Notes under the pieces: model-generated
Told to the model about the DNA's origin: nothing
What the model saw: the letters and a program-made list of their open reading frames with translations, nothing else
Database searches by the model: none
Assembly (NCBI RefSeq): GCF_030028105.1
Contig: NC_092374.1
Coordinates: forward strand, 32,621,016-32,685,015
Reading direction: 5' to 3'
Source of the DNA: Mobula birostris
Taxonomy: Eukaryota
DNA: 64,000 nucleotides
Made by a program: the position numbers and the translations under genes
In this document: one piece after another, positions 3,632-63,962 of the stretch
Numbering within the stretch: position 1 is the stretch's first letter
Layout: each line of letters begins with the position of its first letter

Positions 3632-6600
3632 GTGAGTTACTACACATCTAATGCTGGCGTGGATACAGGTGATGGGACTGTTTGTTTCCCAGTGCACTTT
3701 TCTTTTAACTCTAGTAGCGCGCTGAATTTTCTTTTAAGATCTGATGGCAATGACAAAATTCGTACCCCCTCCCCCCACCCAATTGCAGTATTTTACAATC
3801 CTCAAATCCATCAACAGGTCAGACCACGGCAGAAAGCGCTCATCGCCATCGCAGTGTGATTCGGTCTCACTTCGTTTTCCTTCTCAAAGAGCTGAAGTTA
3901 TCTTCTCCCTTTTACCGGGCTTTGAAGGAGAAGGATGTCTTAACCACCGAGCAAGTGGGACAGATTGAGGTAAGGTTGTATTGCATTTTATTTGTTCCGT
4001 TGAACTTTGCATCCTTTGAGTCGCGAACAGTTCTCGGCCAATAGACAAGCAGACGCCGCTCTACAGATTATCCTCAATTTCCTGTACAGGTGTACATCCT
4101 CATTGACTCTGCAGGGAACCCCAGGTCCTAGCAAATGCACCCCCTTGTTTTACATCTGTTATTCTCTGTAGCTTAACAATATTTCCTGCTTGCAAATAAT
4201 TTTCATGACCTCGTTGCTTTGTTTTTATTTTACACTGTATTTTGTGACAAATAATCGTTCAGTTAAAAAAATGTTGCAAGTACAGTACTGAGCTCGGTTA
4301 TTTTACAGCAACGATTACCGGGGCGATAGTAAAGTAAGAACGGGTTGGATTCTGATGTGAGCTCTAGCTCTATAACAGCCCGCAATCATAAGTTATTCTG
4401 GGTACATTGAAATAAGGAAACTCATCTCCTTGAACTGGCAGCTTTTCGGAATCTTCTACAAATAAGATCCATCACCGATAATGCATAATTAGTTTATGAA
4501 ATCTTCTCCCCATTCCTAATAGAACATCATTAAAAAAAAATGAACTCTATTGTATTGGAAACAGAAAGTGCTGAAAATAGACATAATTTGTAGCCAGTTA
4601 ATGTTTGAAACCTAACTGAACGGATATGACTCAGAGGTAATATTATTTTCTAACCCCTTTACATATGGTGGCGGTCCCTGACATATTTCGGGGAAAATAT
4701 CAATGTTATTTGAAGTTATAACCCTCTCACTAGATAAGTACATGAATAAGACCTCAACCAATATCAGAAAGGAGAACTTTTTTTTACACAAATTCTCACA
4801 CTAGTGACAGGTGCTATCATTTTAGCAACCTTAGATGTCCAGTTAGAAACTGTGGACTGAATATTATGAAGTTAGTTTGGGAGGATAAATGTTTCTCCAG
4901 AATGGCAACAAATGGGCACAATAGTACAGGATTTTTTATTTTTAGGGGGATATGGGCATCACTGGAAGAACCAGCATTTATTGCCCTGGAGAAGGTGGTG
5001 CTGAGCTGCTGCCTCGAAGCACTGCAGTCCTTCGGGTGAAAATGCTCCCATAGTGCTGATGGACAGGTGTCCAAGATTCATACCCTATAATGATGAAGGA
5101 TCAATAACATTTCAAAATCAGGGTGGTGTGAGGCTTGGAGGGGAATCTGCAGGTGGCGGTTTTAACTTCTGCCTGGTTGTCTTAATAGTAGAGATCATGG
5201 ATTGGGAGTTGCTACTGGGGGAGCACATGCTGTAGATATTAATGCCTCAGTTGTGGAAATGAACATCTAGGTGGTGAACGGGGTGCCAATTGAGGAAGTT
5301 GCTCTGTCCTGGGTGACATCAAGTGACTGGGATTTTGTTGGAGCCACAATTATCTGGCTAAGTGGAGAGTATGTAATCATTCTCATAATTGTGCCTTAAG
5401 GAGTGTGGGAAGGCTTTGTGGTGTTAGGAGGTGAGTCAGTCACCTCAGGATATTCAGTCTCCGACCCACTCTTGTAGCTGCTGTTGTAAGTGTCTGTTTA
5501 GTTGAACTTCAGGATCTGTTGCTGGGGCAATTATAATGACACTGAATTGAAAGGGAATAGGTTGTGACTCTCTTTTTGGAGATGGTCATTGCTCAACCCT
5601 ACCTTAAAGTTCATTCAGTCCTGTTGTAGGCAGGGAGGCTTTGTCTACTGAGGAATTGGCAATGGAAATGAATGTGGTACAATCCTCAGGAATTATCATA
5701 CTTATGTCACACTATAGCCCTAATAATGGAAGGAAGATAATTGATTAACTAGTTGAATATACTCTTGAATGGTTCTGGGACTGAGGTGGATGATTTCCCA
5801 AAGCCATTTTCATTTGTGTGACGCATGGTCTAACCATTACAACATATTTTGCCCTGTAGCCCATTGACTTCAGCATTAACAAGCTCCTCGATGCAAATGC
5901 TGCTTTGATTGTGCAGGGCAGTTACTCTCTTCTGTAGAATTTAGTTCGCAAGTTCATGTTGGAACCAATGCTATGGTAAGATCTGGAGCGAGATGAACTG
6001 GGTGAAACATGACTTGGATATCAGTAATTAGGTTTTTCATGCTGCTAGATTCTAAAGCTATAATTTGTACCCTAAAGCTTCTCTTAATTGGGAATGAGAT
6101 GCCAATTTTTCAGGTCTTCATAGCTTTGGAGCTTTTTTGCTCCTCTGAGATCATTGATTTGCAATTATGAAGCAGCAAAATTCAAGTGATTAGCTGCAAG
6201 AAAAGACTTGGGACAGACAACTGTTGTCATTCATTCTGTATTTCCTTACATCAGAAGTTATTGTGTAATGTACAACTGGAAATATAATAAACATGGCTTT
6301 AAAGTAAAACTTAAGAAGTCAAACAAATTAAAACTGTTAATTGGTGCTCTGTGCAGTTAGAGAGCTTGCCAGAACTGAAGGTGGCCAAACTTCTCGAGAT
6401 TGTTAGAAATGCTGATAGCCACGTGTTCAAGTCATTTTGTGGTGTTCTTGGTGAGATGGGATACTGGTACCTAGCGCAGACTCTTCGAACAGCCACTGAA
6501 GAAAAAGAATGGACGTCTTCTACAGGTAAAGGACAAAATGAAGTGAAATGGATTCTTCAAATTTTGGTGTGACTAAAATTCAAAAATATTTTGTCCTAAT

Positions 6601-9600
6601 AATCTTTTAAGTCTTATTGCTTTCCTAAACAGAATATGCCTTGCACCAGTGAATTTTAACTTACAATTATTTTGGGTATGTTTTATTTTGGGTATGTTTT
6701 ATTTTTATAAATCCTTTTTACTGTTTTTCAGAATAAGATCAACAATATAACTAACTGTAAAAATTCTTCTTTCTACCCACTGCACCACTTAATCTGTTTT
6801 TGTTATTTTGGATAAGTTTTTCAATGCCAGTGGATAATTAAAATCAAGTTGTCAAGATTCAACACACCCACATAGTTAAAGTTAAGATTTTTTAAATACT
6901 TAAAATCACACACTCTTCATGTCTTTCTAAATAAAGTTCAAGGAGTTAGCCTACTTTTGAACAACTAAAATATTACACCTAACTCCTTTCTTATGTGCCT
7001 GTACTCTCAACATTTTTTGTTTTCATTTTGTACAGGAAGTTAATTGAAGTTTACAAACCATTAGCACCTCCACAATTGTTTCTGTAAATATAAAATGGCA
7101 GACTTGCACAAAATGGCAGACTTCCACTAGCTTCAGACTTTGAGTTAAGCAGCTCCTCTGCTTGCCTGAACTTCTCTCCTTGTTTTGCTCTGTTTTTAAG
7201 TTTTTTTAAATTTGTAAGCTACATCACCTATCCAACAGTCTATTAATTTTTTGTCTGTGTGGAATCAAGGTGGCTCCAGGTCAACACAGCCAACACTGGG
7301 AGACTGGAAATCAGCGAAGCTCCATCATCCAATCCTTGAGCCAGGTAGGTTATCCAAAGCTTTAGAAAATTATATTGTTGGACTCAACAGTGAACCTTGA
7401 GACTGTAAGTCTCGTGGGAGTAGGATCTGCCTGAAGGTGAGGTTGGAACTACTTTTCCTTAAGTGTTGGGTTAGGGTCAGTGAGACAAACTCCTGAGAGA
7501 TTAGTTCTGCCCGAGTGACAGCTGGCTATATTACATCATAGGTAGTGTCCAACAGTCTCATCTTAGAATGGAGGAAGGTGCTATGTTTTAGACTAAAAAG
7601 CTATTATTACAATTCTCATGAAGGGGACATGGCATATAACCTTGAAAGAATACTAACTAGAATGTTAAACCTGATCTTTTCCATTTTATACCAGGAAAAA
7701 GTAATCAATACATTAGGAATAGAAATTATATTGGTCAGCAATGTAAATAGTGAGATTGCATCTGTAGTGGTTTAAACAATCAGAAGAGTAAAAAATAATA
7801 TGCTTTTACATTTAATGTCTGATTTTTAAATAGGCCTATATACAAGGACACCCCAAGTTATGAATGACCTGACTTACAGAAATACAAATTCTGCAAATTC
7901 TCATAGATTTTTCAAGCTAGTAATAATAATGATAAAATATTCTACCTTAATTCATCAATGACAGGATATGGTATATATTCCATTTGTTTAACTGAGTAGT
8001 ATAGCAAGTGTAATTAATAACAATATGGGTTCCCATGGAAAACTAATCTTCCTAATTTACAGAAAAATGGCTTGTGGACAATTCTCGGGAATGAAACCCA
8101 TATGTGTTCTGGGGACTGTATTGGATTTGTGCCTACGTTTCTAGATTTGAAATTTCTATGTTATAAAATTATAAACTTCTGATGCTCCTTTTGTATGATA
8201 ATTAACAACGAAATAAATCAGAATCTGAAGCATATAATTTTATGAAAGTTTATGATACAATGGGGGGATGTTTGGCCCTAGCCCTATCAGGCAATGGCAT
8301 CAATTTCACTCCTACTTATAATTCTCTGTAATCGACTCTTTGTCCAACAATTCCCATTCAGTTCTCCTGCTACCACCTGCATGAGGGATAATGTATAGAA
8401 GTTAACTAACTTATCAGTCTGCTTGTGGGATGTGGGAGGAGACGAGGGAGAAATCCAGGCAGCTATAGGGAGAATGCTGAGGGGAAAAATGTTAACTGAT
8501 TTTATTTACACTATTTCTCCACAACTATTTGCACATGAGTTTGCTGACTTTGTATTAAATACTTCATTTTACCTTGTAGGATGTATGTCTATATACCATA
8601 AGCAGCACCTGAAAGAAAACTTTCTGCTTTCCAAAGAAGCCAATAAAAATCTAAAAGAAGACAACCTGGAGTTGGGTCAAAAGGTGGGACTTATGAGGGA
8701 AGAATATTTACAAAGGTAAATCAAAAATAAGTTATTTTCAAAATATCAAAGTAAAGGACTTAACAATAGGATACACAAGTGATAGGACTAATGATGGGGC
8801 AGTTGGTATACAAGAAATGTAGTGAGATTGTGAGGAAGAACAGGCAGTTGATAGGGAAAAGTTGCAGTTAGTGGGATGAGTTGAAGTGTAACATGGCACA
8901 AACTCAAAGGGTGAGAATACAGGACTACAAATGTTATATCTGAATGCACGCCATATACACAATAGGATAGATTATCTTGCAGCACAGTTAGAGATTTGCA
9001 GGTATGATATTGTGGGCATCAATGAGACATGGCTAAAAAATCATAGTTAGGCATTTAACATCCAAGGACACACCTTGTATTGAACAGACAGGCAGGTAGG
9101 CGGGACGTGGGTGTGGCTCTGTTGGTAATAACAAGTAAATCAAATCCTTAGAAAGAGGTGACATAGGATCGGAAGATTCCAACCTTGCAGGTAGAGTTAA
9201 GAAACTGCAAGGGTAAAACAACTCTAATGGGAATTGTATACAGAACCCCAAACAGTAGCCAGAATGAAGGATATAAATTTCAACATGAAATAGAAAAGGC
9301 ATGTAATAAGGGCAATGTTATGACTGTCATGGGGGATTTCAATATGCAGGTAGATAAGGAAAATTAGGTTGGTGCTGGATACCAAAAGAAGGAATTTGTA
9401 TAATTCCTACAAGATTTTTTTTTTTTTTTTTAACTGCTTGTGTTTGACCCCACTAGGGGAATGGCAATTCTGGATTGGGTATTGTGTAATGAACCAGATT
9501 TGATTAGGGAGTTTAAGGTAAAGGGACTCTTAGGAGACAGTGATAATAATATGATAGAATTGACCCCGCAGTTTGAGAGGGAGAAGATAAAGTCAGATAT

Positions 9601-28000: not shown

Positions 28001-31000
28001 TAGAAAATATGAAACAGCTGAATGTGCTGTAAACTATCAGTAGGCCAGGCAGCATCTATAAAGGAAAACAGTTTGCATCTCAGGTCAATGACCTTGCAAC
28101 TGAAATAGTCATTGATCCGAAATGCTAACTTTTCTTTTCTCCATAGATATTGCCTGATCTGCCATTAAAAGGAGAACGAAAGTTACCAGGTGATCATGGA
28201 ATAGTAATAACAGTCACCATTTTTCTAACAAAAAGCATTCTTAACATTGTTGATGAATTCAACCTTCAAACTGGATCATATAACAAGCATCCTGCAATTT
28301 CTTTAAGCTTGTTTGAATCCATAAAGTGTTCAAGTTGTGCATTCTTCAGCTGGTAAACTCTTCAGTTTGGTGCTGCTGTGCCATATACTTGGTACCAAAT
28401 TTTTGTTAAGCAATCAAATCAGAAATGTTTTTAAAAAAAAAAATCAGGATTAAACAAAAACATTGACACTGAAAATTGTCATGTTGTGCGCTGAAAATGG
28501 TTTATCTATTAAGTAAGGAACACACACAAAATACTGGAGGAACTCAGCAGGCCATGCAGCATCTATGGAAGAAAGTATGGTCGATGTTTTGGGCCAAGAC
28601 CCTTCGACAGGACTGGAGAGAAAAAAAAAGAGTAGGTTTAAAAGGTAGGAGAGGGGACAGATAAACAAGGTGATAGGTGAAACCAGGAGGGAGATGGATG
28701 AAGTAAACATCTGGGAAGTTGATTGGTAAAAGAGATACAGGGCTAGAGAAGGGAGAGTCTGATAGGTGAGGATAGAAGGTCATGGAAGAAAGGGGGGAGG
28801 AGCACCAGAGGGAAGCAACGGGCAGATGGGGGGGGGGGGGAGAGGGAGGGTTGGGGACTGGTTAAGGAGAGAGCGGGGGGTGGGGTCCCCATTACTGGAA
28901 GTTTGAGAAATCAAGGATCATGCCATCAGATTGGAAGCTACCCAGATGCAATGCAAGGTGCTGTTTCTCCAACCTGAGTGTGGCCACATCATGACAGTAG
29001 AGGTGGTCATGGATTGACATATCAGAATGGGAATGGGAAGTGAAATTAAATTGGGTGGCCACTGGGAGATCCTGCTTCTTCTGACTTGAGAGTGTAGGTG
29101 CTCAGTGAAATGGTCTCCCAATGTCACTTTCATCTAACACCTTTGTTTCTCTCTCTCCTCCCTCCAGCTTTTAAATCTACTCATCTTTTTTTCCCTCCAG
29201 TTCTGCTGAAGGGTCTGGCCCAAAATGTCAACCACGCACCCCCCCCCCCCCCCAACAGATGCTGCCTGGCCTGCTGAGTTCCTCCAGCATTTTGTGTGGC
29301 TCAGATTTCTAGCATCTGTCAATTCTGTTGTTTATCTATTGACTAAGATGAAGATCTAACACAGCCCCTGCACACGGCATTCCCAGATTTGCATACTAGT
29401 GGATATTTTATATATCCAGGTTCCTTACATATTTTATATTTGTGTATTTTTATAAGGAATAATATTTTATACATACACAAGTTCCGACCTCCAGGTGTTC
29501 ATTTGAACTGTACATCTATGCTTTATCACAACACACACTTTGAAAAAAAATCAATCATTGGCTACAAGGTGCCATAGGATACTGATATTGTAGAACACTA
29601 GATAAATCCAAGGTTTTCCATGACAGATATTTCCTGTGTTAAGTGTTTGGTGACATCTAGTGACAGTATAAATGATCCACAAGAATATTGTACAATTAAG
29701 TCTAGTCAGTGGAAGTTTCAAGATGTTTCATGAAAAAAATATTACAGATCTGTGATGTTTTATTTAATCAAGGCAATTGAGCAATCCAAAAATCCCAGAT
29801 TTAATTGTTAAACAACTGTACTGATATACAGAATTGGATTAACATTGGAGTATGATAATTAGCATAGATCTTTAAAGCATATTTCAATTAAAGTATGTCA
29901 GATGTAGAAGGGGGAATAGACCTTTTCCACACCATGTGCAATTACAAGAACTGATGTTACTGAAAAACATCTAATTGGCTTCAATAGATCATACTTGAAG
30001 ATTTGATTACATTTTAATTGTTTCAACAATATATATTTTCTCATTCATTCTTAGGATGTGGACATTGCTGGTATTGCCATCTTTTATTGTTCATTTTTAA
30101 TTGCCGCAAGGCTAACTTCACTATTATGTCTAGAGTCACAAAACCAGAAGTAGGAACAAGCTCTGAAGATTTCCTGAATCACCTTCAATTAAATAGCAAC
30201 ATTTCTGAAACAGAGGACCAATATTCTTCACCACATTCTAGACGTGGTAATTAATGTTGCTAATTAATCCCTTCTCATTGCACAATATCCATGTGCGGGC
30301 ATGTGGCCAAGTGGTTAAGGCATTCGACTAGCGATCTGAAGGTCGTGAGTTCGAGCCACAGCCGAGGCAGCATGTTGTGTCCTTGAGCAAGGCACTTAAT
30401 CACACAGTGCTCTGCGATGACACTGGTGCCAAGCTGTATGGGTCCTAATGCCCTTCCCTTGGACAACATCGGTGTCATGGAGAGGGGAGACTTGCCAGTC
30501 TTCCATACAATCTTTCCCAGGCCTGCACCCTGGAGAGTGAAGACTTTCCAGGTGCAGATCCATGGTCTCGCAAGACTAATGGATGCCTTTTGCACAATAT
30601 CCAAACTAAGATAGCCCACTCTAGTCAAATACAGGTCCAAAAATCCATCTTGTATATACTCCAGAAATTCCTCCTGCAACCATTGTTACTAATTTTTTCA
30701 GTATGAACTATCCAGATTAAAATCTCAAAATGCTGAGTTCAGAGGTTAAGGCAGACATTAGCCCTAATGAATAGATAGTCATTTTCACACTATCAACTTT
30801 ATCCTTGGTTTCTGCTGCTTTTAATATTTACTTAGTTGTACAACTCAGATTTGGTACCAGGTTGTTGCAGCAAGACTTTTATATTCCAATCCCCCTTGAA
30901 GTAAGATCAACATTCGATTAGCCTTCTCTATTACTGGCTACACGTGTGTAAGCTTTCTATGCTCTAGGAGTTTCAAAACACTGTTGCAGTTTTCTACAGT

Positions 31001-34000
31001 TTTACTCCATTTAAATAACACCATTTTTATTTCTCCTTCCAAAATGAAGGACTTCACACATTGCCACATTATACTCTTTTCAATATTTTGCCTCCCTCAT
31101 CCAGTCAATCAATATCTTTCTGTAAACTTGTATCCTCCTCACAACACACATCAAAGTTGCTGGTGAACGCAGCAGGCCAAGCAGCATCTCTAGGAAGAAG
31201 TGCAGTCGATGTTTCAGGCCGAGACCCTTCGTCAGGACTAACTGAAGGAAGAGTGAGTAAGGGATTTGAAAGTTGGAAGGGGAGGGGGAGGGGGAGATAC
31301 AAAATGATAGGAGAAGACAGGAGGGGGAGGGATGGAGCCAAGAGCTGGACAGGTGATTGGCAAAAGGGATACGAGAGGATCATGGGACAGGAAGTCCGGG
31401 AAGAAAGACGGTGGGGGGGGACCCAGAGGATGGGCAAGAGATATATTCAGAGGGACAGAGGGAGAAAAAGGAGAGTGAGAGAAAGAATGTGTGCATAAAA
31501 ATAAGTAACAGATGGGGTACGGGGGGAGGTGGGGCCTAGCGGAAGTTAGAGAAGTCGATGTTCATGCCATCAGGTTGGAGGCTACCCAGACGGAATATAA
31601 GGTGTTGTTCCTCCAACCTGAGTGTGGCTTCATCTTTACAGTAGAGGAGGCCGTGGATAGACATGTCAGAATGGGAATGGGATGTGGAATTAAAATGTGT
31701 GGCCACTGGGAGATCCTGCTTTCTCTGGCGGACAGAGTGTAGATGTTCAGCAAAGCGGTCTCCCAGTCTGCATCGGGTCTCACCAATATATAAAAGGCCA
31801 CATAGGGAGCACCGGACGCAGTATATCACCCCAGTCGACTCACAGGTGAAGTGTTGCCTCACCTGGAAGGACTGTTTGGGGCCTTGAATGGTGGTAAGGG
31901 AGGAAGTGTAAGGGCACGTGTAGCACTTGTTCTGCTTACACGGATAAGTGCCAGGAGGGAGATCAGTGGGGAGGGATGGGGGGGACGAATGGACAAGGGA
32001 GTTGTGTAGGGAACGATCCCTGTGGAATGCCGGGGGGGGGGGGGGAGGGAAAGATGTGCTTAGTGGTGGGATCCCGTTGGAGGTGGCGGAAGTTACGGAG
32101 AATAATATGTTGGACCCAGAGGCTGGTGGGGTGGTAGGTGAGGACCAGGGGAACCCTATTCCTAGTGGGGTGGCGGGAAGATGGAGTGAGAGCAGATGTA
32201 AGTGAAATGGGGGAGATGCGTTTAAGAGCAGAGTTGATAGTGGAGGAAGGGAAGCTCCTTTCTTTAAAAAATGAAGACATCTCCCTCGTCCTAGAATGAA
32301 AAGCCTCATCCTGAAAGCAGATGCGGCGGAGACGGAGGAATTGCGAGAAGGGGATGGCGTTTTTGCAAGAGACAGGGTGAGAAGAGGAATAGTCCAGATA
32401 GCTGTGATATTTTGCATTTAAATATCCTCCTCACAAGTTGCCTTTCCACCCATTTTTAATGTCATCTGCAAATTTGTCTACAATACACTCATTTCCCTCC
32501 TCCAGTTAACTTGTACAAGCTGCAAACCTCTGACACATTGCTATTCAGAAAACTACTTGAAAAAAAAATTCCCTATGCACTGCTATTGCCTGGTCATCAG
32601 TTTAAAAGCTTAAGAAAAGTGACACAGTGTGATAGGTTGCTGAAGCACACACATTACAGGCATAGTAAGCCAAATCAACTGCCCCTACCTGTTTTGGTTC
32701 TATAGCTTAGACTCTTGGCTTGAAGAAAGAAGATTGTTAGCAATGAGAAGCTTACCAGATTTTTGTTCTCTTTGGAGTAAGTCTGCTTTTCTGAATCATG
32801 TTATCTACGAGGTAGTAAAGCAGTATCATTATCCCAGCAACGTACAGCATTACATACAGAATGAAGGTCACATGAAAAGGTGCTTCAAATTGCCATTGAA
32901 TCTTATCCTGTAGTTTAACAAGTCATAAAGCAAGACAGGATATCAGATGCCTGGGCTTCAGCTATTTACAACCTCTAAACATGATACAGTTGAGATCCAA
33001 ATTACAAATTAATGCACAAGGTGACAAGAATAGAAATGTGTTATTATTCTTTTGGATAGTAAAAAAACAGATTTTTAAAATAAAGGACAGAAATAGAAAT
33101 ATTCCAAATCAAAAGCTTATGCATCTTTGTACAGGAATCACATTCTTACATGGAGTGAGTAGACCCTTTCTCCTGACTTTAGAATTCCTAGCCTACCTAG
33201 ACCTTTCTTCTCGCCATTTATCCTCCGAATACATTTCTCAGAGTGGGATCAGGTGACCCAAAGTTTAAATGTGCAGGAACAGAGAGACTGTTCATATCTG
33301 GAACAGAGGGCTGTATATTTATAATGGTACTTCAATATATGTGGAGAAGTGGAAGAGTGAAATAGGACCTTAGTAGGTTGTAATTTAAAGTAACTAAAAG
33401 GCAAATTATGGCTGAAGCTTCTGCATTCTGTTGGTATTCAGGGACACTACCTCTATCCTGGTCCAACTACAGTTACTGGTTAACCATATTATGGTAGTCA
33501 AGAAGTAAAGGAGAGTAAAGGTGTCATGATACATATCACCACCAATGGCAAGGGATGAGATCTTTGAACTGAATGTAGGGTAAGCAAATTAAACACAAGA
33601 ACCTAAACGATATTTCCTGTATCATTTGCCAGTCAGAGTACAAGTAAAAGGATAAATTGGATTAATGCATGGCTCGATGAATGGTTTAAGTGGAGAGATG
33701 CAAGTTCCTGAGACCTTGTTACTTGTTCTGATGGAGTTGAAAACAGTAGGGGGTGATATTGGGGATATTAAACAAGAAATTAGACATACATGAAATAAAG
33801 ATTAACAGTACTTTGCAAATACTTTAATCTACATATAGATACAGCTAACCATTAGTAATGATGCTTGCTGGAGGAATTCCTGAAGTGAACACAGGATGGT
33901 TTTCTGGATCAATATATTGAAGAATCAACAACAGTGTGGATCACCCAAGATTGTGCATTGTGCAATGAAATGATTGATAAGCAAGCATATCATGTGTGGC

Positions 34001-50269: not shown

Positions 50270-50710
50270 TGTGGCCTACGTGCTCCATACCTTACCCGAG
50301 TTGTTCTTGGATGGGCTGCTACAGGTTCATGTCGAGTTTAGCACCGGCTGCCTCCTCTCCCGCAGCCCCGATCCAGCCCCCACACAACCAGAGCAGCGTC
50401 CGACCGTTGTCGCCTGCTCGACCGCCTCCTCTCCCGCTTCAAATTCAAGCGACCCGCCTCCACGGGCGCGACCAATCGACTGCCGACATTATATACCAAT
50501 CCCCGCCGTTCCTCGGGCACTGTGGGGGCGGGGAATCGCGATTGATGTCGCCGTGAACCAAACAGAATCGAGCTCTGTCAGAAGCCCCGCCCTGAAGCTC
50601 CAGCTTGCCCAATGAACATATTGAGCAGGCGAGCAGAAGAATCGTCCGCAATGGAGACGGCGCCGCGCACGGCGGTGGATTCGGGGGAGGGAGCGGCGCG
50701 AAATATGGAG
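50270..50710. promoter_or_regulatory. Bidirectional CpG-island promoter shared by the 4-TM gene and CENPH, with CCAAT, GC and CDE/CHR-like boxes
   Basis: CpG-dense stretch in AT-rich surroundings; CCAAT at 50472, 50496 and 50609; GC boxes at 50525 and 50585; - strand GGCGG-gtcg-CTTGAA-TTTGAA at 50438-50458. Confidence 0.8.
50296..50430 (-). other. Probable non-coding first exon of the 4-TM gene (5' boundary approximate)
   Basis: Donor CGG|gtaagg at 50296/50295 inside the CpG island; the next exon's acceptor at 46982 precedes the ATG. Confidence 0.6.
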
Positions 50711-53700
50711 TAAGGAATTGAAATGCCTTTGTAGTTTATGTCCGTTCAGTGCTGGGTGCTGATATGCTGCAAGCTGGTAACGTTAGTAAAGAGGATGTGC
50801 TGGAATTTTAAAAAAATGGGAGAAGTGGACGGAATATTTCATCCATCAACTATCCAGCTCTTGGCTCCATCCCTCCCCCTCCTGTCTTCTCCTATCATTT
50901 TGGATCTCCCCCTCCCCCTCCAACTTTCAAATCTCTTACTAGCTCTTTCATCAGTTAGTCCTGACGAAGGGTCTCGGCCTGAAACGTCGACTGTACCTCT
51001 TCCTAGAGATGCTGCCTGGCCTGCTGCGTTCACCAGCAACTTTGATGTGTGTTGCTTGAACTTCCAGCATCTGCAGAATTCCTTGTGTGGATGGGCTATT
51101 CCCCAGGTTACTTAGGGAAGCGAAGGAAGAGATGCTGCTTCTTTGGTGATCTTTGTGTCTTCGCTGGCCATAGGAGTAGAATCAAATGATTGGAGGGTGG
51201 CAAATGCCATTCCTTTGTTCAAGAAAAGGAGTAGGGAGTTTTTCTTCAGTTATAGGCAAATTATTGGAGAGGATTCCTAGAGGTAGGGTTTACGGGTATT
51301 AAATGGAGAGGCATAGTCTGAATAGGGATGGTCAGCATGGTTTTGAGAGGGGCAGATCATGACTCCCAAGTCTGATTGAACTCTTTGAGGATGTGATACA
51401 ATGCATAATGAAGATAGTGCACTTGAGGTGTACGTGGTTTTTAGTAAGACCTTTGACAGTGTTCCCCGCGGTAGGTTCATTTGGAAAGTCAGGTGGCATT
51501 CAGAATTGGCTTGCCACAGAAGACAGAGAGTGGTAGGAGATCTCGCGTATTCTGCTGGAGCTCAGTGTGCTGTGGGGTTCTGTTCTGGGAATTCTCTTTG
51601 GGATTTTTATAAATGACTTGGACGAGAAAGTGGCAGATGGAGTTCAATTTGGAAAAATGTGACGTGATATACTTTGAAGGTCGAACGGCTGGATTTATTA
51701 GTGTGGAGGAACAGAGGGATTTTGAAGTCCACTTCCACAGATGTACAAGGTTGCTGTACAAGTTAATAGGGAGGTGAAGAAGGCATGTAGAGTATTGTCC
51801 TTTACTTGTTGGGAGATTGAGTTCAAGAACCGTGAGGTAATGTTGCAGCTCTGGTTAGTCTATACTTGGAGTATTGTGTTCATTTCTGGTTGCCTCATTA
51901 TAGGAAGGATATGGAAGCTTTTGAGGGGGTGCAGAGAGATTTACCAGGATGTTAACAACAGGAATTCTGCAGATGCTGGAAATCCAAGCAATACACATCA
52001 AAGTTGCTGGTGAACGCAGCAGGCCAGGCAGCATCTCTAGGAAGAGGTACAGTCGACGTTTCAGGCCGAGACCCTTCATCAGGACTAACTGAAGGAAGAG
52101 TTAGTAAGAGATTTGAAAGTTGGAGGGGGAGGGGAGATACAAAATGATAGGAGAAGACAGGAGGGGGAGGGATGGAGCCAAGAGCTGGACAGGTGATTGG
52201 CAAAGGGGATATGAGAGAATCATGGGACAGGAACCAGAGGATGGGCAAGGGGTATGGTCAGAGGGAGAAAAAGGAGAGTGAGAGAAAGAATGTGCATACC
52301 CCACCTCCCCCTCGTACCCCATCCGTTATTTATTTTTATACACACATTCTTTCTCTCACTCTCTTTTTTCTCCCTCTGTCCCTCTGACTATACCACTTGC
52401 CCATCCTCTGGTTCCCCCCCCCTTGTCTTTCTCCCCGGATCTCCTGTCCCATGATCCTCTCATATCCCCTTTGCCAATCACCTGTCCAGCTCTTGGCTCC
52501 ATCCCTCCCTCTCCTGTCTTCTCCTATCATTTTGTATCTCCCCCTCCCACTTTCAAATCTCTTACTAACTCTTCCTTCAGTTAGTCCTGATGAAGGGTCT
52601 TGGCCTGAAACGTCGACTGTACCTCTTCCTAGAGATGCTGCCTGGCCCGCTGCGTTCATCAGCAACTTTGATGTGTGTTGTTTACCAGGATGTTGCCTGG
52701 ATTAGAGAACATTCCTTATTAGGAAGGGTTGAGCGACCTACAGCTCTTTGGAGCAAAGGATGAGAGGTCACTTGACAGAGGTGAACAAGGTGATAAGACG
52801 CATAGATACAGTGGATAGCCAGAAACTTTTTTCCAGGGTTGGAGTGGCTAACACCAGGGAGTGTGATTTTAAGGTGATTGGAATAAAGTGTGTGGGCACG
52901 TGGCCAAGTGGTTAAGGCATTCGACTAGTGACCTGAAGGTCGTGAGTTCGAGCCCCAGCCGAGGCAGCATGTTGTGTCCTTGAGCAAGGCACTTAACACA
53001 CAGTGTTCTGCGAAGAAACTGGTGCCAAGCTGTATTGGCCCTTGCCCTTCCCTTGGACAACATCGGTGTCATGGAGAGGGGAGACATGCAGCGTGGGCAA
53101 TTGCTGGTCTTCCATATAACCTTGCCCAGTCCTGTGCCCTGGAGAGTGAAGAATTTCCAGGCACAGATCCATGGTCTCACAAGACTAACGGATGTCTTTA
53201 ACGGAGTAAAGTATACGGCGATGTCGGAGGTACTTTTTTTTTTTTAGAGTTTCAGTGTGTGGTGTGCATTGCCAGGATTGTGATAGAGACCGATATGTTG
53301 TAAGGGCATTTAAGAAACCTAGGCACATGCATGAAAGAAAAATGGAAGGCTATAGGGGAGGGAAAGGTTATATTGATCTTAAATTAGGTTGAAAGGTCAG
53401 CACAACTTTGTGGGCCAAAGGTCCATTACTGTGCTGTACTGTTTACATTCTATATGAATAAGGTTATAAAAGGATACCAGATATGTTAAAGTGCAAAAAT
53501 CTGGCAAACTACAATGTAGTAAAAATGTAAGATTGTCCATTTTCAAATAAATAATAAAGAAACACATGGCTAAATGATAGATTGGAGGAGATGCAACAGA
53601 ATGCTTAAATGTAGACAGAGTAAGGTATTAGGAAGACTAACCATCTTAAGGTTTATTTTGAAATAATTGAATGCAAAAATTGATATCCATTTTTCAGTTC

Positions 53701-56700
53701 TATGGGGTATTCATGTAACTACACTTGGAGTATTATGTACAGTATTGATCTCCTTAGAATCACATGCTCTGTTGGGCCATCGAGTGCCTACCTATAGTAG
53801 AGATACAAGAGACTACAGATGCTTTAATCTGGAGTATAAAATAAACTGCTGGAGAAACTCGGCAGGCCAGGCAGCATGTGCAAAGGGCGGGGGGGGGGGG
53901 GGGGCGGTACCTGTCCTAATTCAGTTTACCAGCATTTAGTTCTGTGTCTTGGTGATTCAAGTGCTTACCCAAATACTACTTAAATGGGTGGGAGTACCTG
54001 ACTTCACCACCTCAGACAGCCCCTTCAAATTGCAGCCACACTTCGGGTGAAAATATTTTTCCTCAGAATGCAGCACTGTGCACTTATCAAGGTTGAATGA
54101 CAGTTGTGATTGTTTGGTGCACCTTTCTAGGTGATCAATATCATCTTATAACCTAAGACTGTTCTCATTACTATTGTTAGGACAACCAATTTTCATGTCA
54201 TATTCAAACTAATACCTCCTATAATCATATTCAAATCAGTCATGCATAGGACAAATAGTAAGGTTTCAAAGGTACATTTAATGCCAGAGAAATGTATACA
54301 ATACATATCCTGAAATGTTTTTTCTTCGCAACCATCCACGAAAACAGAGGAGTGCCCCAAGGAGTGAATGACACTTAAATGTTAGAACCCCACAGCCCCC
54401 CAGCTCCCCCCTCCCATGCGTAAGCAGCAGCAAAGCAACAATCCCACCGACAAAAGAAAAAGCATCGGCGCCCACCACCAAGCACTCAAGCATGTATCAA
54501 AGACAGACTTGCAGTACCCGAAAGACTACTCATTCACCTGGTATTCGACATACCACAGGCTATCTCTGTCCCTAATGAGGGAAGAAGAAGTGTCTCTGTT
54601 TCACAGCAAGAGGGGAGACATAACAAACAACTCGCTGATTACGATGTTGAAAGTCTGTTGCGTCGCTTTTTCCGAGCTCTGTGCCCAAAGATCTCAGGTC
54701 TCTGGGCACATAGCCAGAGATCTTCTGTCTCCCACGCTACACCGATTTCCTGCCAGGACACCAACCTTCGGTCCACCCATCTCCAGAGCCACGAGATCCT
54801 GGAACTCTGAAGGTGAGCTAATCTCTTAGGCTGCATCCTCGGCATATCGAATAACGGCCAGTCGTGAAACTCTGAGAGCAGGTCCCATTCCCGCAAAGAA
54901 CCCAAGTCAGCGTCTAATTCCAGGTCAGAGTCTTCAAAAGAACCCTGGAAGGGAAGAATAGAGATATTAAAGATAGAAATAGAGCTGTTTCCGAAGATGC
55001 AAGCAAAGGAGGCGCCATTGTAAGGGTCCCAACATGAGTCAAAGAGTCGTACAGCATAGAAATGATATTTCCTACTGTATGCATGATGACCTTTTTGCCC
55101 ATCTATCTATTTGCCCACATTAGGAATGTTCTTTCAAAGCTCTGCCTTTTTAAATATTTGTTTCTCTCACTGACAAAGCCATGCTTCCTATCTTTGATCT
55201 ACCCCTCCCTTTCCAAGTATTAATCATGTTTCTCATAACTTTTATTTTAACTGAAGTTAGACTCATGGGCCTGTAATTACCTGATTAGTGCCTGGCAGGC
55301 CACCTTGAATAAAGGTAACACATTTGCTATCCTCTAATTATAACCTCTAGTTAGTAGAGGTTCTTTTTTTTTTCTCTTTTTTTTTCAAAAAAAAATTATT
55401 AACACTTTATTCTTATTGATATATTGCTTAGCTTTGTTAATCAGTTATTTGCTAATTTAATACTTTATTGTATATATTGACACATTGACTTGATTATCTT
55501 AATGTATTTTTTGTTGATCTTTAATAATAATTAAAAAAGGTTTTAAAAATGAAATAACCTATGGCCAGTGAAGATGTGAAAATCTCTATCACAACCCCAG
55601 CAATCTCTTTTCTAGAATACATCTCATGAGGCCTGAGGATTTATATATCTTTATATAGAGTAAACATCTAAAGCAATCTCCTTTTTAATATCAGCATTGA
55701 TTGAAATATCCGTGTTCCTCTCCATGAAACCTGCAACTACAATGTCTTTCTCATCCGAATGCATATGAGAAGTGTTCATTTAAGCCCTCATCAACATAGC
55801 CCCATGCACAGATTGCCTCGTGATTCCTAATGGGGACCCTGCTTACCCGCTTTTTAATATAAAATGCCCAGGGGAATTTTCTTAATCTGTCAGAGATGTT
55901 TCATGGCCCCACTTCATACTAATTTAGTTTTGAAGTCCTCTCCTACATGTTCTGTACTCCTGAAGGGCCTTGCCTTTTTTTCCAGTGTTTATTCCTGCCA
56001 TCCGCTTCCTTTTTTAAACCTTATCAAATCCTCTATCCCTTGACCTCTTGGGCTTAGCTTCCCTGATTTCACTTTTGCAGGCTGAACTCTCACTGTTTCA
56101 CTTTTAAGGGACCCCTATTTGTTAGATGTAGGTTTACCCTTGGATAACTTTCCCCTCTGCCTCTGCCAAATCCTGTTTATGATATTGAAACTGGTCTTCC
56201 CTCTCCAACCAAGATCACCTTTATCCCTTTCTACAACTATCCTGAAACTTAGTGTTTTGATTAGTATCCTCAAAGTGCTCACCCACAGTTCAGTACTGCC
56301 TCTCCTCTATTAGGAATATCTATATACAGTTGTCACTTTTCTTATAGTACCTTTGATGTCCATTCACTTTCTGTTTCCATGCTGGTGATTCTAGCCCTCT
56401 ACCAACTAGGTTGTTCACAACTTTGGTGTCACAGTAGATCAAAAGAGTTAAGTTTGTATTTAGGCCACTACTGTTCAATTTGTCTATCATGTTGGTTTCC
56501 AGTTGAACAGTATCTTGATTTTAAAATTCTCATATTTGATTTAGAAGTTCCTTTCCGGTCTTCTTTCCATCTTTTTAATTCCTTCCAGCTATGTAACTGA
56601 GATATCTAGACCCCATCCATTCTAGCTTTTGAACATGCCTGAATTTAATGGTTCATTTAATTTACCTTACTCTCAGTTTGAAAGGCTTTAAGTTGTGGAA

Positions 56701-59700
56701 AGTCCTCTCTAGTTTCCTCTACCTTAATCCTTAAAAGCCATTTGTTTAGCCAAGCCTTTGCTAAACTCCATTATCTTTTGCATACCTTCACATTAATAAT
56801 TTAATGGGTAGTGATAGTGTGAGGTGCACATTTTTGCTCTACTAAAAGTGCTATGTAAATAGAAGATGTGTGCCAGCTAATATTCATACCTGAATTACAA
56901 AAATCATCTGCTCATTATTATACTGTTATCACCCAGTGTGGGGTGTGCATAATACCCACTAATAATACACATTAATTAAATTTTTACAGCTCTTCTTAAG
57001 GATGTGATTTATAGTTCTGATGTACCACTCCACCCTGGAGATTCCTTGGCTTATTTCTGTTCCTAATTGGAATAATTTACTGCACACTTTAAAATTTGTA
57101 TGTTCACATTATTTGATATCTTGCAATAGCCTATCTACAGTATTTTCTAATATTTATAGAACAGAAAGATCTATCCTACAAAAGCTTGGCAGTTCCTGTA
57201 TGAAGCTGGGACAGTTGGCACTTGATAATTTCCATGTAACACCAACTGTTGAACAAGAAAATGCTACCGTAATGGACTCTATTCTGCATCTTATGTGGTG
57301 AGTAATGGCTGTGCATTTAGTGAGATACAGTAGATTTTCAATATCCCATCACAGCAGAATTATTAATCATAATGATTTTTTGTTGATTTCTATTAGAGCA
57401 TTAGAGTTTCCAGCCATAGTCTCCTTTTTAATTAATAGAGTGGAGAGCAAGAGGAAGGCACAATATCCCCGAAAGGTCTTTGGAGGATGATGCAAATGGA
57501 AAATCAAAACTGGCCAAGGAAATTACTCTTAATTTCTTAAATTTGGTAATATTGTAGGAAAGTAAAAACACATTGTATTGGGATGAATATTAAATTCATT
57601 AAAATTCCATGCTGCAAGGCCGTGCCATGTACATGTGGGATTGATCTTATAGTAAAGCTCAATGCCACCTTCAGTCCCGAAAATTTGAAACAAAGGCAAG
57701 ACGTCTGATTTGTTTACTTTTATAGATGTAAAAATAACAATTGTTTTATGTTTTATATATTTTCTTGATAGGTTAAAGGATCAAGTAACCCAACAAACAC
57801 TGGAACTAGAAACTGGTGTGAAAGCTTGTAAGATGTTTTGAATTACCTTTTAAGTTATTTTGATTTGCTTCATTTCTTTGTGAAATTTGATCTCTGCAGT
57901 TATTATTTCTTCATAGAATCATAGCATGCTTCAGCACAGAAAAGGGTCCTTCGGCCCATCTAGTCTGTGCTAAACTTATTCAGCCTAGACCCATCAACCC
58001 GCACTTGGACCATAGCCCTTCGTACCCCTTTCATCCATGTATTTATCAAAGTTTCTCTTAAATGTTGAAATCAAACTCCCATCCAGCACTTCCACGTGCA
58101 GCTAGTTCCATACTTGCATAACCCTCTGAGTAAAGAAGTTTCCCCTCAGGTTTCCCCTTAAATATTTCATCTTTCACCCCCTAACCCAATCGATCGCCTC
58201 TGATCTGGGCCGACATTTATGTGCCAGGCGGCACCTAATTAATTAGCTTGTTTATTTTGGCTTTTTTCTTAAAGATGTGCTGGGTGCGTTCCGACTACCG
58301 CTGCATTCTTCGCGGCAATGTATCAGTCCGCGGCCCGGAGGTTGGGGCCCACTGCCCTAACCTATGACTTCTAGTTCTTGTCTCACCCAGTGTCAGTGGA
58401 AAAAGCCTGCTTGCATTTACCCTATCTATAATTTTGTATACCTCTATCAAATCTCCCTCATTCTCCTACACTCCAGGGAATAAATTCTGAACCTATTCAA
58501 CCTTTCCCTATAACCCAGGTCCTCAAGTCCTGGCAGCATCCTTGTAAATTTTCTCTGTACTCCTTCAATCTTAATATCTTTGCTGTTGGTAGGTGTACTG
58601 CATGCAATACTCCAAATTAGACCTCACCAATATCTTCTACAACTTCAACATTCACTGAACATGTTTAGAATAGAATAAAGTTCCTCTGTTTGATGTTATA
58701 GTTTGGAGAACTAACATTCATCCAGAATCTAGTGCATAAAAATTTCTAATGCAGGATTGAAGGAGTACTTCATTGGGGTGGTACTGTCCTTAGGGCAAAA
58801 CATTAAATGTAAGTTCTATATATACTTTTGACTGGACATAAAGGATTGCATAGTGCCATTTTGAAGGAAGACGGTGGAGATGGAGATGTTTTTTGTGGCC
58901 TGACCAGTATTTGTCTCCATTAGTATTACTGCAACAGATTATTTAGTCATTATCCTGTTGCTGTTTGTTAGAACTGGCTGTGTGAAAGTTGTTTGCCTTG
59001 TTTTCTATGTTGTAACAAGGACTGCATTCCCATAGACAGGAGAAAATCTGTAGATGCTAGAAATCCAAACAACACACATCAAAATGCTGGAGGAACTCAG
59101 CAGGCCAGGCAGCATCTATGGAGAAGAGTACAGTTGACGTTTTGGGCCAAGACCCTTCAGCAGGACAGCTGAATTTCTCCAGCATTTTGTGTGTGTTGCT
59201 TGCATTCCCATGTTGTTTTATTGGTGGCAAAATGCTTTAGAATGTCCTAGGATCTAGATGTATGTTATAGTATTGTACTTTATTTTATTTTGCCTTTTCC
59301 TCCTTTATGTGAAACCATAGAAACTACAGCACAGAAACAGGCCTTTTGGCCCTTCTTGGCTGTGCCAAACCATTTTCTGCCTAGTCCCACTGACCTGCAC
59401 ACAGACCATATCCCTCCATACACCTCCCATCCATGTATCTGTCCAATTTATTCTTAAATGTTAAAAAAGAACCCGCATTTACCACCTCGTCTGGCAGCTC
59501 ATTCCATACTCTCACCACTCTCTGTGTGAAGAAGCCCCCCCTAATGTTCCCTTTAAACTTTTCCCCCCTCACCCTTAACCCATGACCTCTGGTTCTTTTC
59601 TCCCCTAGCCTCAGTGGAAAAAGCCTGCTTGCATTCACTCTATCTATACCCATCATAATTTTATATACTTCTATCAAATCTATTGTTTAATTGCCCTAAC

Positions 59701-62700: not shown

Positions 62701-63962
62701 GGATCCTCAAAGCAATGTCCCCTTAGATCCCATGCCTCCTTACTTTCTCAATAAGCCTTACATGGGGTACCTTATCAAATGCCTTGCTTTTGACAAGGCC
62801 ATGCTGACTATTGTGTGGTGTGTGGCCAAATGGTTAGGGCGTTGGGCTCACCATTAGAAGGTCGTGGGTTCAAGTCTCGGCCAAGGCAGCATGTGTGTCT
62901 TTGAGCAAGGCACTTAACCACACATTGCTCCAGTCCACCCAGCTGAAAATGGGTACTGGCAAATGCTGGGGGTTAACCTTGCGATAGACTGGCGTCTTAT
63001 CCGGTGGGCGGGAGTCTCGCACTCTCAGTCGCTTCACACCACAGAAACCGGCATAAGCACTGGCCTGATGGGCCACAAAGCTCGGGGCAGACTTTAACTT
63101 TAATGCCAACTATTCCTAATCATATTATGTTTCTCCAAATGTTCATAAATCCTGCCTCTCCGGATCTTCTCCATCCACTTACCAACCATTGACATAAGAC
63201 TCACTGGTCTATAATTTCCTGGACTATCTTTACTCCCTTTCTTGAATAAGGGAACAACACTTGCAACCCTCCAACCCTCCAGAATCTCCTCCCTCGCCTT
63301 CCACAGTAGCCTGGGGTATATCTCATCCGGTCCCAGTGACTGACTTGATGCTTCCCAAAAGCTCCAGCACATCCTCTTTCTTAATGTCCATTTGCTCAAG
63401 CTTTCCAGTCTGCTGTAAGTCATCCCTACAATTGCTAAGGTCCTTTTCTGAAGTGAAATAATACATTGGTATATTGGATTGTCCACAGTGTATGTGAATG
63501 ACACATTGTATACTCCTTTTTTAGGAGTTAAAAGAAAAAATATCTTGCAGAAAATTCTTTATTCATTGCAAATTTAATGACTAAAATAATTTCTAGTACT
63601 TTTGAGGTTCTAAACTGAAAGAAAAAAGTAAAATTGAACAAATGGTCAATGAGAGATCCTAATCAAAAGACCTTCATTTCTTGGTCTATAAAATGACCAG
63701 TAAAACTCAGTAAAAAATATTAAACAAGTAGCCAAAAGTTGTTGCAACACATATAAAAGTTGCTGGTGAATGCAGCAGGCCAAGCAGCATCTCTAGGAAG
63801 AGGTACAGTCGACGTTTCAGTCCGAGACCCTTCGTCAGACCCTTTGTTTAGCCAAAAGTTGTTGTTTTTTTTTTGGGACCAAAATTAATTAGTATTTGTA
63901 TTTTTTTAACCAGGTCTTGAAACTAATTCAGGGACTGTGTCGGAAGATAATTTGAAAGAAAC
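50651..63962 (+). CDS. CENPH: Centromere protein H, 5' part; join(50651..50709,57160..57297,57772..57827,63914..63962), continues beyond the window; in-frame upstream ATG at 50612
   Basis: DSILHLMW|[18 protein letters not shown] aligns by eye with human CENP-H DRMTLLLR|LRAQTKQQLLEYKSMVDA, and AVDSGEG resembles ADSGGEG. Junctions are phase-consistent GT-AG. The 56- and 49-nt exons match the human exon sizes as I recall them (not verified). Confidence 0.8.
50850..51088 (+). mobile_element. Penelope-like pLTR fragment in CENPH intron 1
   Basis: Near-identical to the 31145-31350 end and to 52480-52680. Confidence 0.88.
50957..50992 (+). ncRNA. Minimal type-I hammerhead ribozyme motif, intact core
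   Basis: AGTC-CTGACGA-AGG(gtctcgg)CCT-GAAA-CG-TC^GACT: stem I AGTC/GACT, stem II AGG/CCT, palindromic ACGT helix III; predicted cut after 50988. Confidence 0.8.
52051..52086 (-). ncRNA. Minimal type-I hammerhead ribozyme motif, intact core
   Basis: The - strand reads AGTC-CTGATGA-AGG(gtctcgg)CCT-GAAA-CG-TC^GACT. Confidence 0.78.
52583..52618 (+). ncRNA. Minimal type-I hammerhead ribozyme motif, intact core
   Basis: AGTC-CTGATGA-AGG(gtcttgg)CCT-GAAA-CG-TC^GACT; predicted cut after 52614. Confidence 0.78.
52890..53200 (+). mobile_element. tRNA-derived CORE-type SINE (family A, second copy)
   Basis: Highly similar to 30292-30589; imperfect TSD GGA(A/G)TAAAGT. Confidence 0.88.
54260..55019 (-). 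mobile_element. Non-coding retroposon with an AATGGCGCC 5' end and a Rex-like 3' tail
   Basis: The - strand starts AATGGCGCC and ends ...CATTAAATGTACCTTTGAAACC; GC-richer than the flanks; appears to split a decayed CR1. Confidence 0.55.
57160..57297 (+). CDS. CENPH: CENPH exon 2
   Basis: ttatag|A ... TG|gtgagt, open frame. Confidence 0.8.
57772..57827 (+). CDS. CENPH: CENPH exon 3
   Basis: tgatag|G ... T|gtaaga; encodes [18 protein letters not shown]. Confidence 0.82.
57915..58650 (-). mobile_element. CR1 3' fragment
   Basis: Homologous to 25064-25640. Confidence 0.85.
58187..58354. mobile_element. hAT/Charlie-type MITE (left end largely deleted) inserted in CR1
   Basis: Right end CCGCGGCCCGGAGGTTGGGGCCCACTG; 8-bp TSD CCCTAACC (58179-58186 / 58355-58362). 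Confidence 0.75.
59034..59200 (-). mobile_element. Short Penelope pLTR insertion with an inverted tail
   Basis: 11-bp TSD TGCATTCCCAT (59023-59033 / 59201-59211); variant hammerhead core CTGCTGA. Confidence 0.8.
59312..59680 (-). mobile_element. CR1 3' end, near-identical to 25064-25420
   Basis: [37 protein letters not shown]. Confidence 0.92.
60870..61360 (+). mobile_element. Degenerate Penelope-like fragment with pLTR
   Basis: Homologous to 31145-32200; decayed hammerhead AGTCCTGCTGAAGGGTCTCAGCCTGAAAT. Confidence 0.75.
61645..63460 (-). mobile_element. CR1 LINE fragment interrupted by a SINE
   Basis: ORFs 61735-62361 and 63100-63504 carry CR1 RT motifs. Confidence 0.9.
62812..63102 (+). 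mobile_element. tRNA-derived CORE-type SINE (family B, different 3' half)
   Basis: A/B boxes and GTGTCTTTGAGCAAGGCACTTAACC; tail ends ACTTTAACTTT; diverged TSD ATGC(TG/CA)ACTAT. Confidence 0.85.
63745..63848 (-). mobile_element. Short Penelope pLTR insertion ~65 bp upstream of CENPH exon 4
   Basis: 16-bp TSD TAGCCAAAAGTTGTTG (63729-63744 / 63849-63864); hammerhead with a stem II mismatch. Confidence 0.88.
63914..63962 (+). CDS. CENPH: CENPH exon 4
   Basis: aaccag|GT ... AC|gtatgt; 49 nt, phase 1 in. Confidence 0.75.

Follow-up and report, generated by a model that had tools for sequence, protein, structure and literature searches.

Two hammerhead motifs in CENPH intron 1 of Mobula birostris as probable end-pieces of separate Penelope-like insertions

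Intron 1 of the centromere protein gene CENPH in Mobula birostris carries two intact hammerhead motifs on the sense strand, and the question raised by this locus is whether they form one self-cleaving unit in the CENPH pre-mRNA or are neighbors by chance. The original prediction, made from the window (the whole 64,000-nt stretch of DNA analyzed here, G000:C6:32,621,016-32,685,015, in a genome of 4.01 Gb), was that the pair acts as a dimer. The best explanation, which we consider very probable, is that the motifs are end-pieces of two separate Penelope-like element (PLE) insertions and likely inert passengers of a spliced intron.

Hammerhead motifs and their element family

The CENP-H exons in the window are 100% identical to the Mobula birostris CENP-H protein. 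The coding part of exon 1 lies at 50612 to 50709 on the plus strand, with the donor GT at 50710, and exon 2 lies at 57160 to 57298 (+; end approximate), so the placement of both motifs in sense within intron 1 (50710 to 57159, +) is correct. Transcript-like contigs from runs X1 and X2 depart from the genome at 50709 and run on into the opening 30 nt of exon 2; these two contigs with the joined form come from one study, and the RNA status of the run set is a guess. The contig comparison covered the unique exon 1 stretch in four of the seven runs. Run X5 gave a 35-nt partial match to the exon 1 stretch only, and run X6 gave no match to the unique CENPH exon 1 stretch. A further copy of the family lies antisense in CENPH intron 3 (63745 to 63838, minus strand); its core is intact, but helix I is incomplete because the sequence ends just 5' of the core.

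Motif 1 (50957 to 50992, +) has C3 at 50961 and C17 at 50988, and motif 2 (52583 to 52618, +) has C3 at 52587 and C17 at 52614, with 1626 nt from one C17 to the other. Both read AGTC.CTGA(C/T)GA.A.GGGT-loop-GCCT.GAA.ACGT.C.GACT. An antisense motif at 52051 to 52086 (minus strand; C3 at 52082) is as intact as the two plus-strand motifs. As had been claimed from the sequence, the cores are complete on the CENPH strand: CUGAnGA, GAAA, and the NUH triplet are present, the last as GUC at 50986 to 50988 and at 52612 to 52614. Helix I has 4 bp (AGUC/GACU) and is extendable. Helix II also has 4 bp, and its closing pair is G.U, not G-C. Helix III is, as was also noted originally, nothing but the palindrome, ACGU at positions 15.2 to 16.2, with a zero-nucleotide loop in both motifs, so that it can pair in a dimer only. 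An extra nucleotide follows position 9, namely the A ahead of GGGU. The G10.1-C11.1 pair is absent, as all three copies have U11.1, which gives G.U (or A-U without the extra nucleotide); in the minimal hammerheads of PLEs, this pair is highly conserved but not universal. The U11.1 variant is also found in pseudo-LTRs (pLTRs) beside long open frames and is therefore a subfamily trait. Among 87 sampled copies, position 11.1 is T in 43 and C in 41.

A loose core pattern had six matches in the window, compared to 0.98 ± 0.95 in shuffled sequences, so these matches are not chance sequence. The covariance-model scan originally proposed as a check gave no match to the Rfam hammerhead models at the gathering score in the window and none at an E value of ≤10 in 50800 to 52800. 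Rfam matches to miRNA precursors at 52187 to 52487 were rejected; all were below the gathering scores and reflect the inverted-repeat hairpin at that site.

The 390-nt repeat in which the motifs lie is the 3' pLTR downstream of a frame encoding RT and GIY-YIG domains. At loci L009 to L012, pLTR homology begins 4 to 8 nt past frames that end in GIY-YIG. All three long frames tested (901 to 1014 aa) had RVT_1 followed by GIY-YIG, with E values of 1.5e-5 to 6.3e-5 and 9e-4 to 2.5e-3, respectively, all under Pfam's cut-offs; homologues have the same domain order, RT and then GIY-YIG. Locus L034 is a pLTR-ORF-pLTR tandem with a period of 3711 nt, and the RT-EN linker of locus L032 has C-x4-C-x2-C ahead of the GIY-YIG domain. 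A CX2-5CxxC motif in this linker is a mark of the Neptune and Nematis clades (PMC8557442). Because RT and GIY-YIG frames adjoin the pLTR, a tandem is present, and the linker carries this motif, both CENPH motifs are, by sequence, known minimal hammerheads of Penelope-like pLTRs with a linker of the Neptune/Nematis type. The assignment covers the two clades, Neptune and Nematis, together. The original attribution to Penelope-type minimal hammerheads, with a dimer through the palindrome as the active form, was right. In the study of Cervera and De la Pena (2014; PMC4209133), cleavage was absent for single minimal hammerheads and slight for dimers. Elsewhere in the window, the element is represented by a longer fragment (31141 to 32417, minus strand), with a frame ending in GIY-YIG (31539 to 32417) and then the pLTR, in which the palindrome is mutated to ACAT.

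The exact 29-mer core occurs in 38,883 copies in 4.01 Gb, and the exact 35-mer (core plus helix I arms) occurs in 30,840; reversed controls gave 0. The family seems both young and very numerous (254,404 first-look candidates), and copies with open frames of 901 to 1014 aa are located at G000:C11:144219641, C20:30699342, and C25:37697987. The long frames of locus L020 were rejected as PLE protein, being simple repeats. Several subfamilies among L040 to L159 retain the 36-nt motif yet diverge directly outside it. In older copies, CTGAnGA is replaced by CTGC(T/C/G)GA (A6 to C), at 59150, 61280, and 29230 in the window and in 6 of the 87 sampled copies; these are perhaps a variant-core subfamily rather than the outcome of decay.

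The ray motifs have in common with the minimal hammerheads of PMC4209133 the Type I core, the palindromic positions 15.2 to 16.2 without a loop 3, the short helix I, the extra nucleotide after position 9, the pLTR position, and thousands of dispersed truncated copies. They differ from the motifs described there in the length of helix II (4 bp in the ray versus 7 to 8 bp in Schistosoma families), in the G.U at 10.1-11.1 of the CENPH-intron copies in place of the typical G-C, and in copy number (at least 30,840 in the ray versus 4,000 to 9,000 in coelacanth and Xenopus). A ray is not known to be named in PMC4209133, whose supplements may include a cartilaginous-fish motif. A literature search for hammerheads in shark or ray PLEs found none among the listings; a 2026 preprint (bioRxiv 10.64898/2026.07.22.740005) covers one chondrichthyan genome. 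With the Neptune/Nematis EN+ PLEs (Craig et al. 2021, PMC8557442), the ray element shares an RT followed by a C-terminal GIY-YIG domain, the C-x4-C-x2-C linker, partial tandems, an inverted 5'-truncated arm, and a tail at one end, although the window contains fragments only. The hammerhead in the pLTR is likewise common to Poseidon of Anolis (PAc; Frangieh et al. 2024, PMC11167929). In PAc, the copies terminate at either of two positions beyond the cut site; the ray copies end at +66 and at +98/+101. In contrast to Penelope/Poseidon elements, which are described without a linker Zn finger, the ray element has C-x4-C-x2-C. Protein-assisted cleavage was measured in PAc (PMC11167929).

Two insertions in one LINE fragment

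The host of both motif-bearing insertions is an old, RT-like LINE fragment (50780 to 52890, +; limits approximate). In tblastn, positions 51066 to 51617 gave a match of 31% over 222 aa (E value of 1e-17), and we take the fragment to be CR1. Its segments at 51773 to 51953 and 52681 to 52889 match one continuous copy at 62287 to 61893, with a 14-nt overlap, so the host LINE is continuous across the second of the two insertions (insertion B). Downstream of the LINE fragment, a dispersed repeat at 52889 to 53199 is also present at 30292 to 30590 (87% alike over 314 nt); its start looks tRNA derived, and it presumably resembles a SINE. L008 2364-6101, some 10 kb beyond the final CENPH exon, is a LINE-like element whose first frame is GDSL-esterase-like and which also has an RT frame.

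Insertion A (50839 to 51086, +) is a 5'-truncated pLTR end with its tail and ends 98 nt past C17. Its probable target-site duplication (TSD) at 50825 to 50838 is identical to 51087 to 51100 at 11 of 14 positions. Insertion B is made of an inverted arm (51954 to 52295, minus strand), which is a pLTR with tail and contains the intact motif at 52051 to 52086, and a direct arm (52296 to 52680, +), which is a near-complete pLTR without tail and ends 66 nt past C17. The TSD of insertion B is identical at 14 of 14 positions, with the left copy at 51940 to 51953 and the right copy at 52681 to 52694. The inverted arm and the motif-2 copy differ from each other at 7 of 203 sites, and the motif-1 copy differs from these two at 10 of 208 and 11 of 203 sites. 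Because each insertion has its own TSD (14/14 versus 11/14) and the motif-1 copy is more divergent, the sequence places motif 1 and motif 2 in two independent insertions, not in one unit. The sequence common to the surroundings of both motifs is only ~215 nt long, and the rest of the interval consists of LINE and inverted arm. The ends of the copies differ by 32 to 35 nt. All three copies extend 66 to 101 nt beyond C17, indicating that the RNA that was copied had not been cut there, in line with what is reported for the anole element (PMC11167929).

As judged from its structure and from comparable loci, inverted insertion B is an ordinary product of this element. Neighbor pairs among the first 100 matches listed were in the -/+ orientation within 4 kb in 8 of 99 cases and in the +/- orientation in none. 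Other inverted pairs, hand-picked (n = 13), had a TSD-like match of 13 to 19 nt in 10 cases and none in 3, and loci L013 and L014 have the same triple layout as the CENPH intron. Inverted 5'-truncated PLE copies with a 30- to 40-bp tail at one end have been described (PMC8557442), as have opposite-strand minimal hammerhead pairs 100 to 700 bp apart (PMC4209133).

The tail-out inverted insertions (L002, L004, L011 to L013, L015 to L018, and L021, as well as 51954 to 52680) have duplications of 13 to 19 nt, mostly ~14 nt, and the tail is often on one arm only. In vitro, the anole PLE protein both cuts and extends each of the two strands (PMC11167929), and by analogy, the tail-out duplications would fit priming from both nicked strands. 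Within the CENPH intron, the inverted insertion at 51954 to 52680 is a ~340-bp hairpin that A-to-I editing or dsRNA helicases would likely act on.

Predicted folding and alternative readings

RNA spanning 50780 to 52760 was folded for the minimum free energy (MFE) structure, enforced alternatives, and ensemble probabilities, using one parameter set that ignores tertiary contacts, proteins, helicases, and editing. In the MFE structure, 50913 to 51083 pairs with the inverted arm, and a 93-bp duplex covers motif 1, which is predicted to be buried against 51985 to 52092. What is left of the arm is taken up by the 5' half of the direct arm, which creates a three-way junction branching near 50913, and motif 2 is unpaired to the arm (P of pairing, ~0) and without a partner. 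The ensemble gives a P of ~1 for pairing between motif 1 and the arm, and burial of motif 1 is predicted by the time the transcript has grown to 52100, when motif 2 has yet to be made. The original prediction that the antisense copy at 52051 sequesters a partner thus holds for motif 1 in the predicted fold. Its proposed role as a regulatory brake does not, since the copy is the inverted arm of motif 2's own insertion.

The double-core dimer came out at +91.8 kcal/mol and, with the arm blocked, at +23.4 kcal/mol. Because the energy model under-rates hammerhead junctions (the dimer is at +23 even with the arm blocked) and a single parameter set was used, the telling value is the 68 kcal/mol that the arm contributes. 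The ensemble probability was 1.6e-13 for helix III between the motifs and 4e-49 for a core cutting at 50988.

We therefore favor a course of events in which insertion A and inverted insertion B landed in the same old LINE fragment. Motif 1 would be unable to cut alone in the CENPH pre-mRNA because its helix III is without a loop. About 1 kb downstream, the antisense arm would emerge and pair with motif 1, the 5' half of the direct arm would capture the rest of that arm, and the branch of the resulting three-way junction would lie upstream of motif 1. Motif 2 would stay free of the arm and without a cis partner. The pair, made up of young insertions, is likely inert because the reversed arm is predicted to bury motif 1 before its partner is made. 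The intron would then be spliced out and the copies would decay at CpG sites, with selection keeping the motif in the active element and not at the CENPH locus. Several points weigh against this reading: a trans partner could engage motif 2, which the predicted fold leaves free; the energy model has the limits given above; the RVT_1 and GIY-YIG matches lie below Pfam's cut-offs; the contigs are from one study with a guessed RNA status; and the sample of strictly intact copies (2 sense to 5 antisense, see below) is too small to discount moderate selection against sense copies.

The alternative that survives best, although we find it quite improbable, is a splint role for the arm. If the branch lay at the palindrome, motif 1 would supply the 5' half and motif 2 the 3' half of a single core, which would make one slow cut at 52614, and no 1626-nt piece or circle would result. 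The two sense copies have separate toeholds, copy 1 on the tail at one end of the arm and copy 2 on the 5' part of the pLTR at the other, and the MFE structure is itself such a three-way junction. The single core was at +25.5 kcal/mol with the arm and +19.4 kcal/mol without it, so the arm adds only ~6 kcal/mol, and among 10 internal branch positions none was cheaper than the palindrome (a branch at 50945, at +25.9, looks like a constraint conflict). However, even before the core forms, placing the branch at the palindrome costs 13.8 kcal/mol relative to the MFE position near 50913, the ensemble probability is ~1e-11 to 1e-13, and helix II is closed by G.U. Copy 2 also has a 5-nt gap relative to the arm, which would stall branch migration upstream, and splicing is reported to proceed despite slow hammerhead cuts in introns (PMC2995048). 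The wider possibility that splinted self-cutting at 52614, through the same accidental layout (L013 and L014), points to self-cutting introns across ray genomes is highly improbable.

We regard as very doubtful that motif 2 is occasionally cut in trans, by a copy in another transcript or with the protein of the element, as a genome-wide background that is not CENPH specific. The freedom of motif 2 from the arm (P of pairing, ~0) and the tens of thousands of intact copies would allow this, and cleavage of the anole element is protein assisted, its ribozyme having cut only with the protein of that element (PMC11167929). However, the intermolecular helix would have just 4 bp, the intron is short-lived, and the copies show no strand bias; in the anole study, RNA-seq ends at the cut site were not found (PMC11167929).

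The original prediction itself, a double-core dimer in cis that cuts at 50988 and 52614 and frees a 1626-nt RNA that may circularize or tune CENPH, is extremely unlikely. Both cores are intact and in sense, the fold is nested and sterically allowed, dimer cleavage is reported for the class (PMC4209133), and in zebrafish, an engineered fast hammerhead placed in an intron can lower mRNA up to 20-fold (PMC11856399); slow intronic hammerheads reportedly leave splicing intact, and fast ones do not (PMC2995048; PMC11856399). Against it stand the energy with the arm in place, the negligible probability of a core cutting at 50988, the independence of the insertions, the hundreds of such pairs expected by chance, and the spliced exon 1-exon 2 contigs. 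The freed piece would be LINE debris and an inverted repeat, with no tandem monomer. Because the pair is not a unit, motif 1 is buried, and the dimer is at +92 kcal/mol, the folding model makes a 1626-nt circle very unlikely. The claims of a functional dimeric unit and of a released RNA are not upheld, and an effect on CENPH is unsupported. Animal non-LTR retrozymes (PMC7229834; bioRxiv 10.64898/2026.07.22.740005) likewise have Type I hammerheads of PLE origin and yield circles by double cleavage, but they are described as ~300-nt head-to-tail repeats (51 to 972 in the preprint) with a motif per unit, whereas the interval here is 1626 nt of LINE and inverted arm. A retrozyme was rejected, as such repeats are absent and only ~215 nt is shared.

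Chance pairs, strand bias, and decay

Under random placement, ~295 same-strand pairs within 2.5 kb would be expected genome-wide. Among the matches listed, such pairs were observed in 3 of 99 cases for the 29-mer and in 1 of 99 for the 35-mer. The CENPH pair is one of hundreds of chance neighbor pairs expected.

Strand bias was sampled in six 200-kb blocks (1.2 Mb) between same-strand Pfam exon matches of long genes, with each block inferred to lie within a single gene. These blocks held 118 copies, 60 in sense and 58 in antisense orientation. The sense-to-antisense ratio was 17:17 for young copies and 5:6 for loosely intact copies, and strictly intact (GUC) copies numbered 2 in sense and 5 in antisense, a comparison of low power. 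The copies are therefore without strand bias overall, and moderate selection against strictly intact sense copies is compatible with the 2:5 ratio at this low power. Locus-specific selection on the pair was rejected, as there is no strand bias and the base rate suffices.

Of the sampled copies that span the motif, 11 of 87 were intact, 7 of them strictly. Changes in the sampled copies are mostly at CpG sites, two of which lie within ACGTCG. The original prediction had set the CENPH pair against the copies in the neighboring gene (22640, 28590, 31204, and 39650). These are truncated or mutated, as described, but with 11 of 87 copies intact, four broken copies out of four have a P of 0.58 to 0.71, and the contrast reflects the base rate. 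Regarding the description of this neighbor as a four-transmembrane (4-TM) gene, none of the 103 minus-strand frames of at least 62 aa matched a membrane-protein family.

As found, the CENPH pair matters little, its members being chance neighbors among the ends of a known ribozyme-bearing retrotransposon. The pair is useful as a worked control, in which core intactness reflects insertion youth and the antisense "brake" is a normal inverted insertion product of the element. The splinted core, if it exists, would be a new route by which antisense repeats assemble dispersed, half-active ribozymes in host pre-mRNAs. The ray family, with more than 30,000 intact cores, long open frames, and frequent TSD-flanked tail-out inversions, is a good system for finding out if PLE hammerheads cut at all in vivo.
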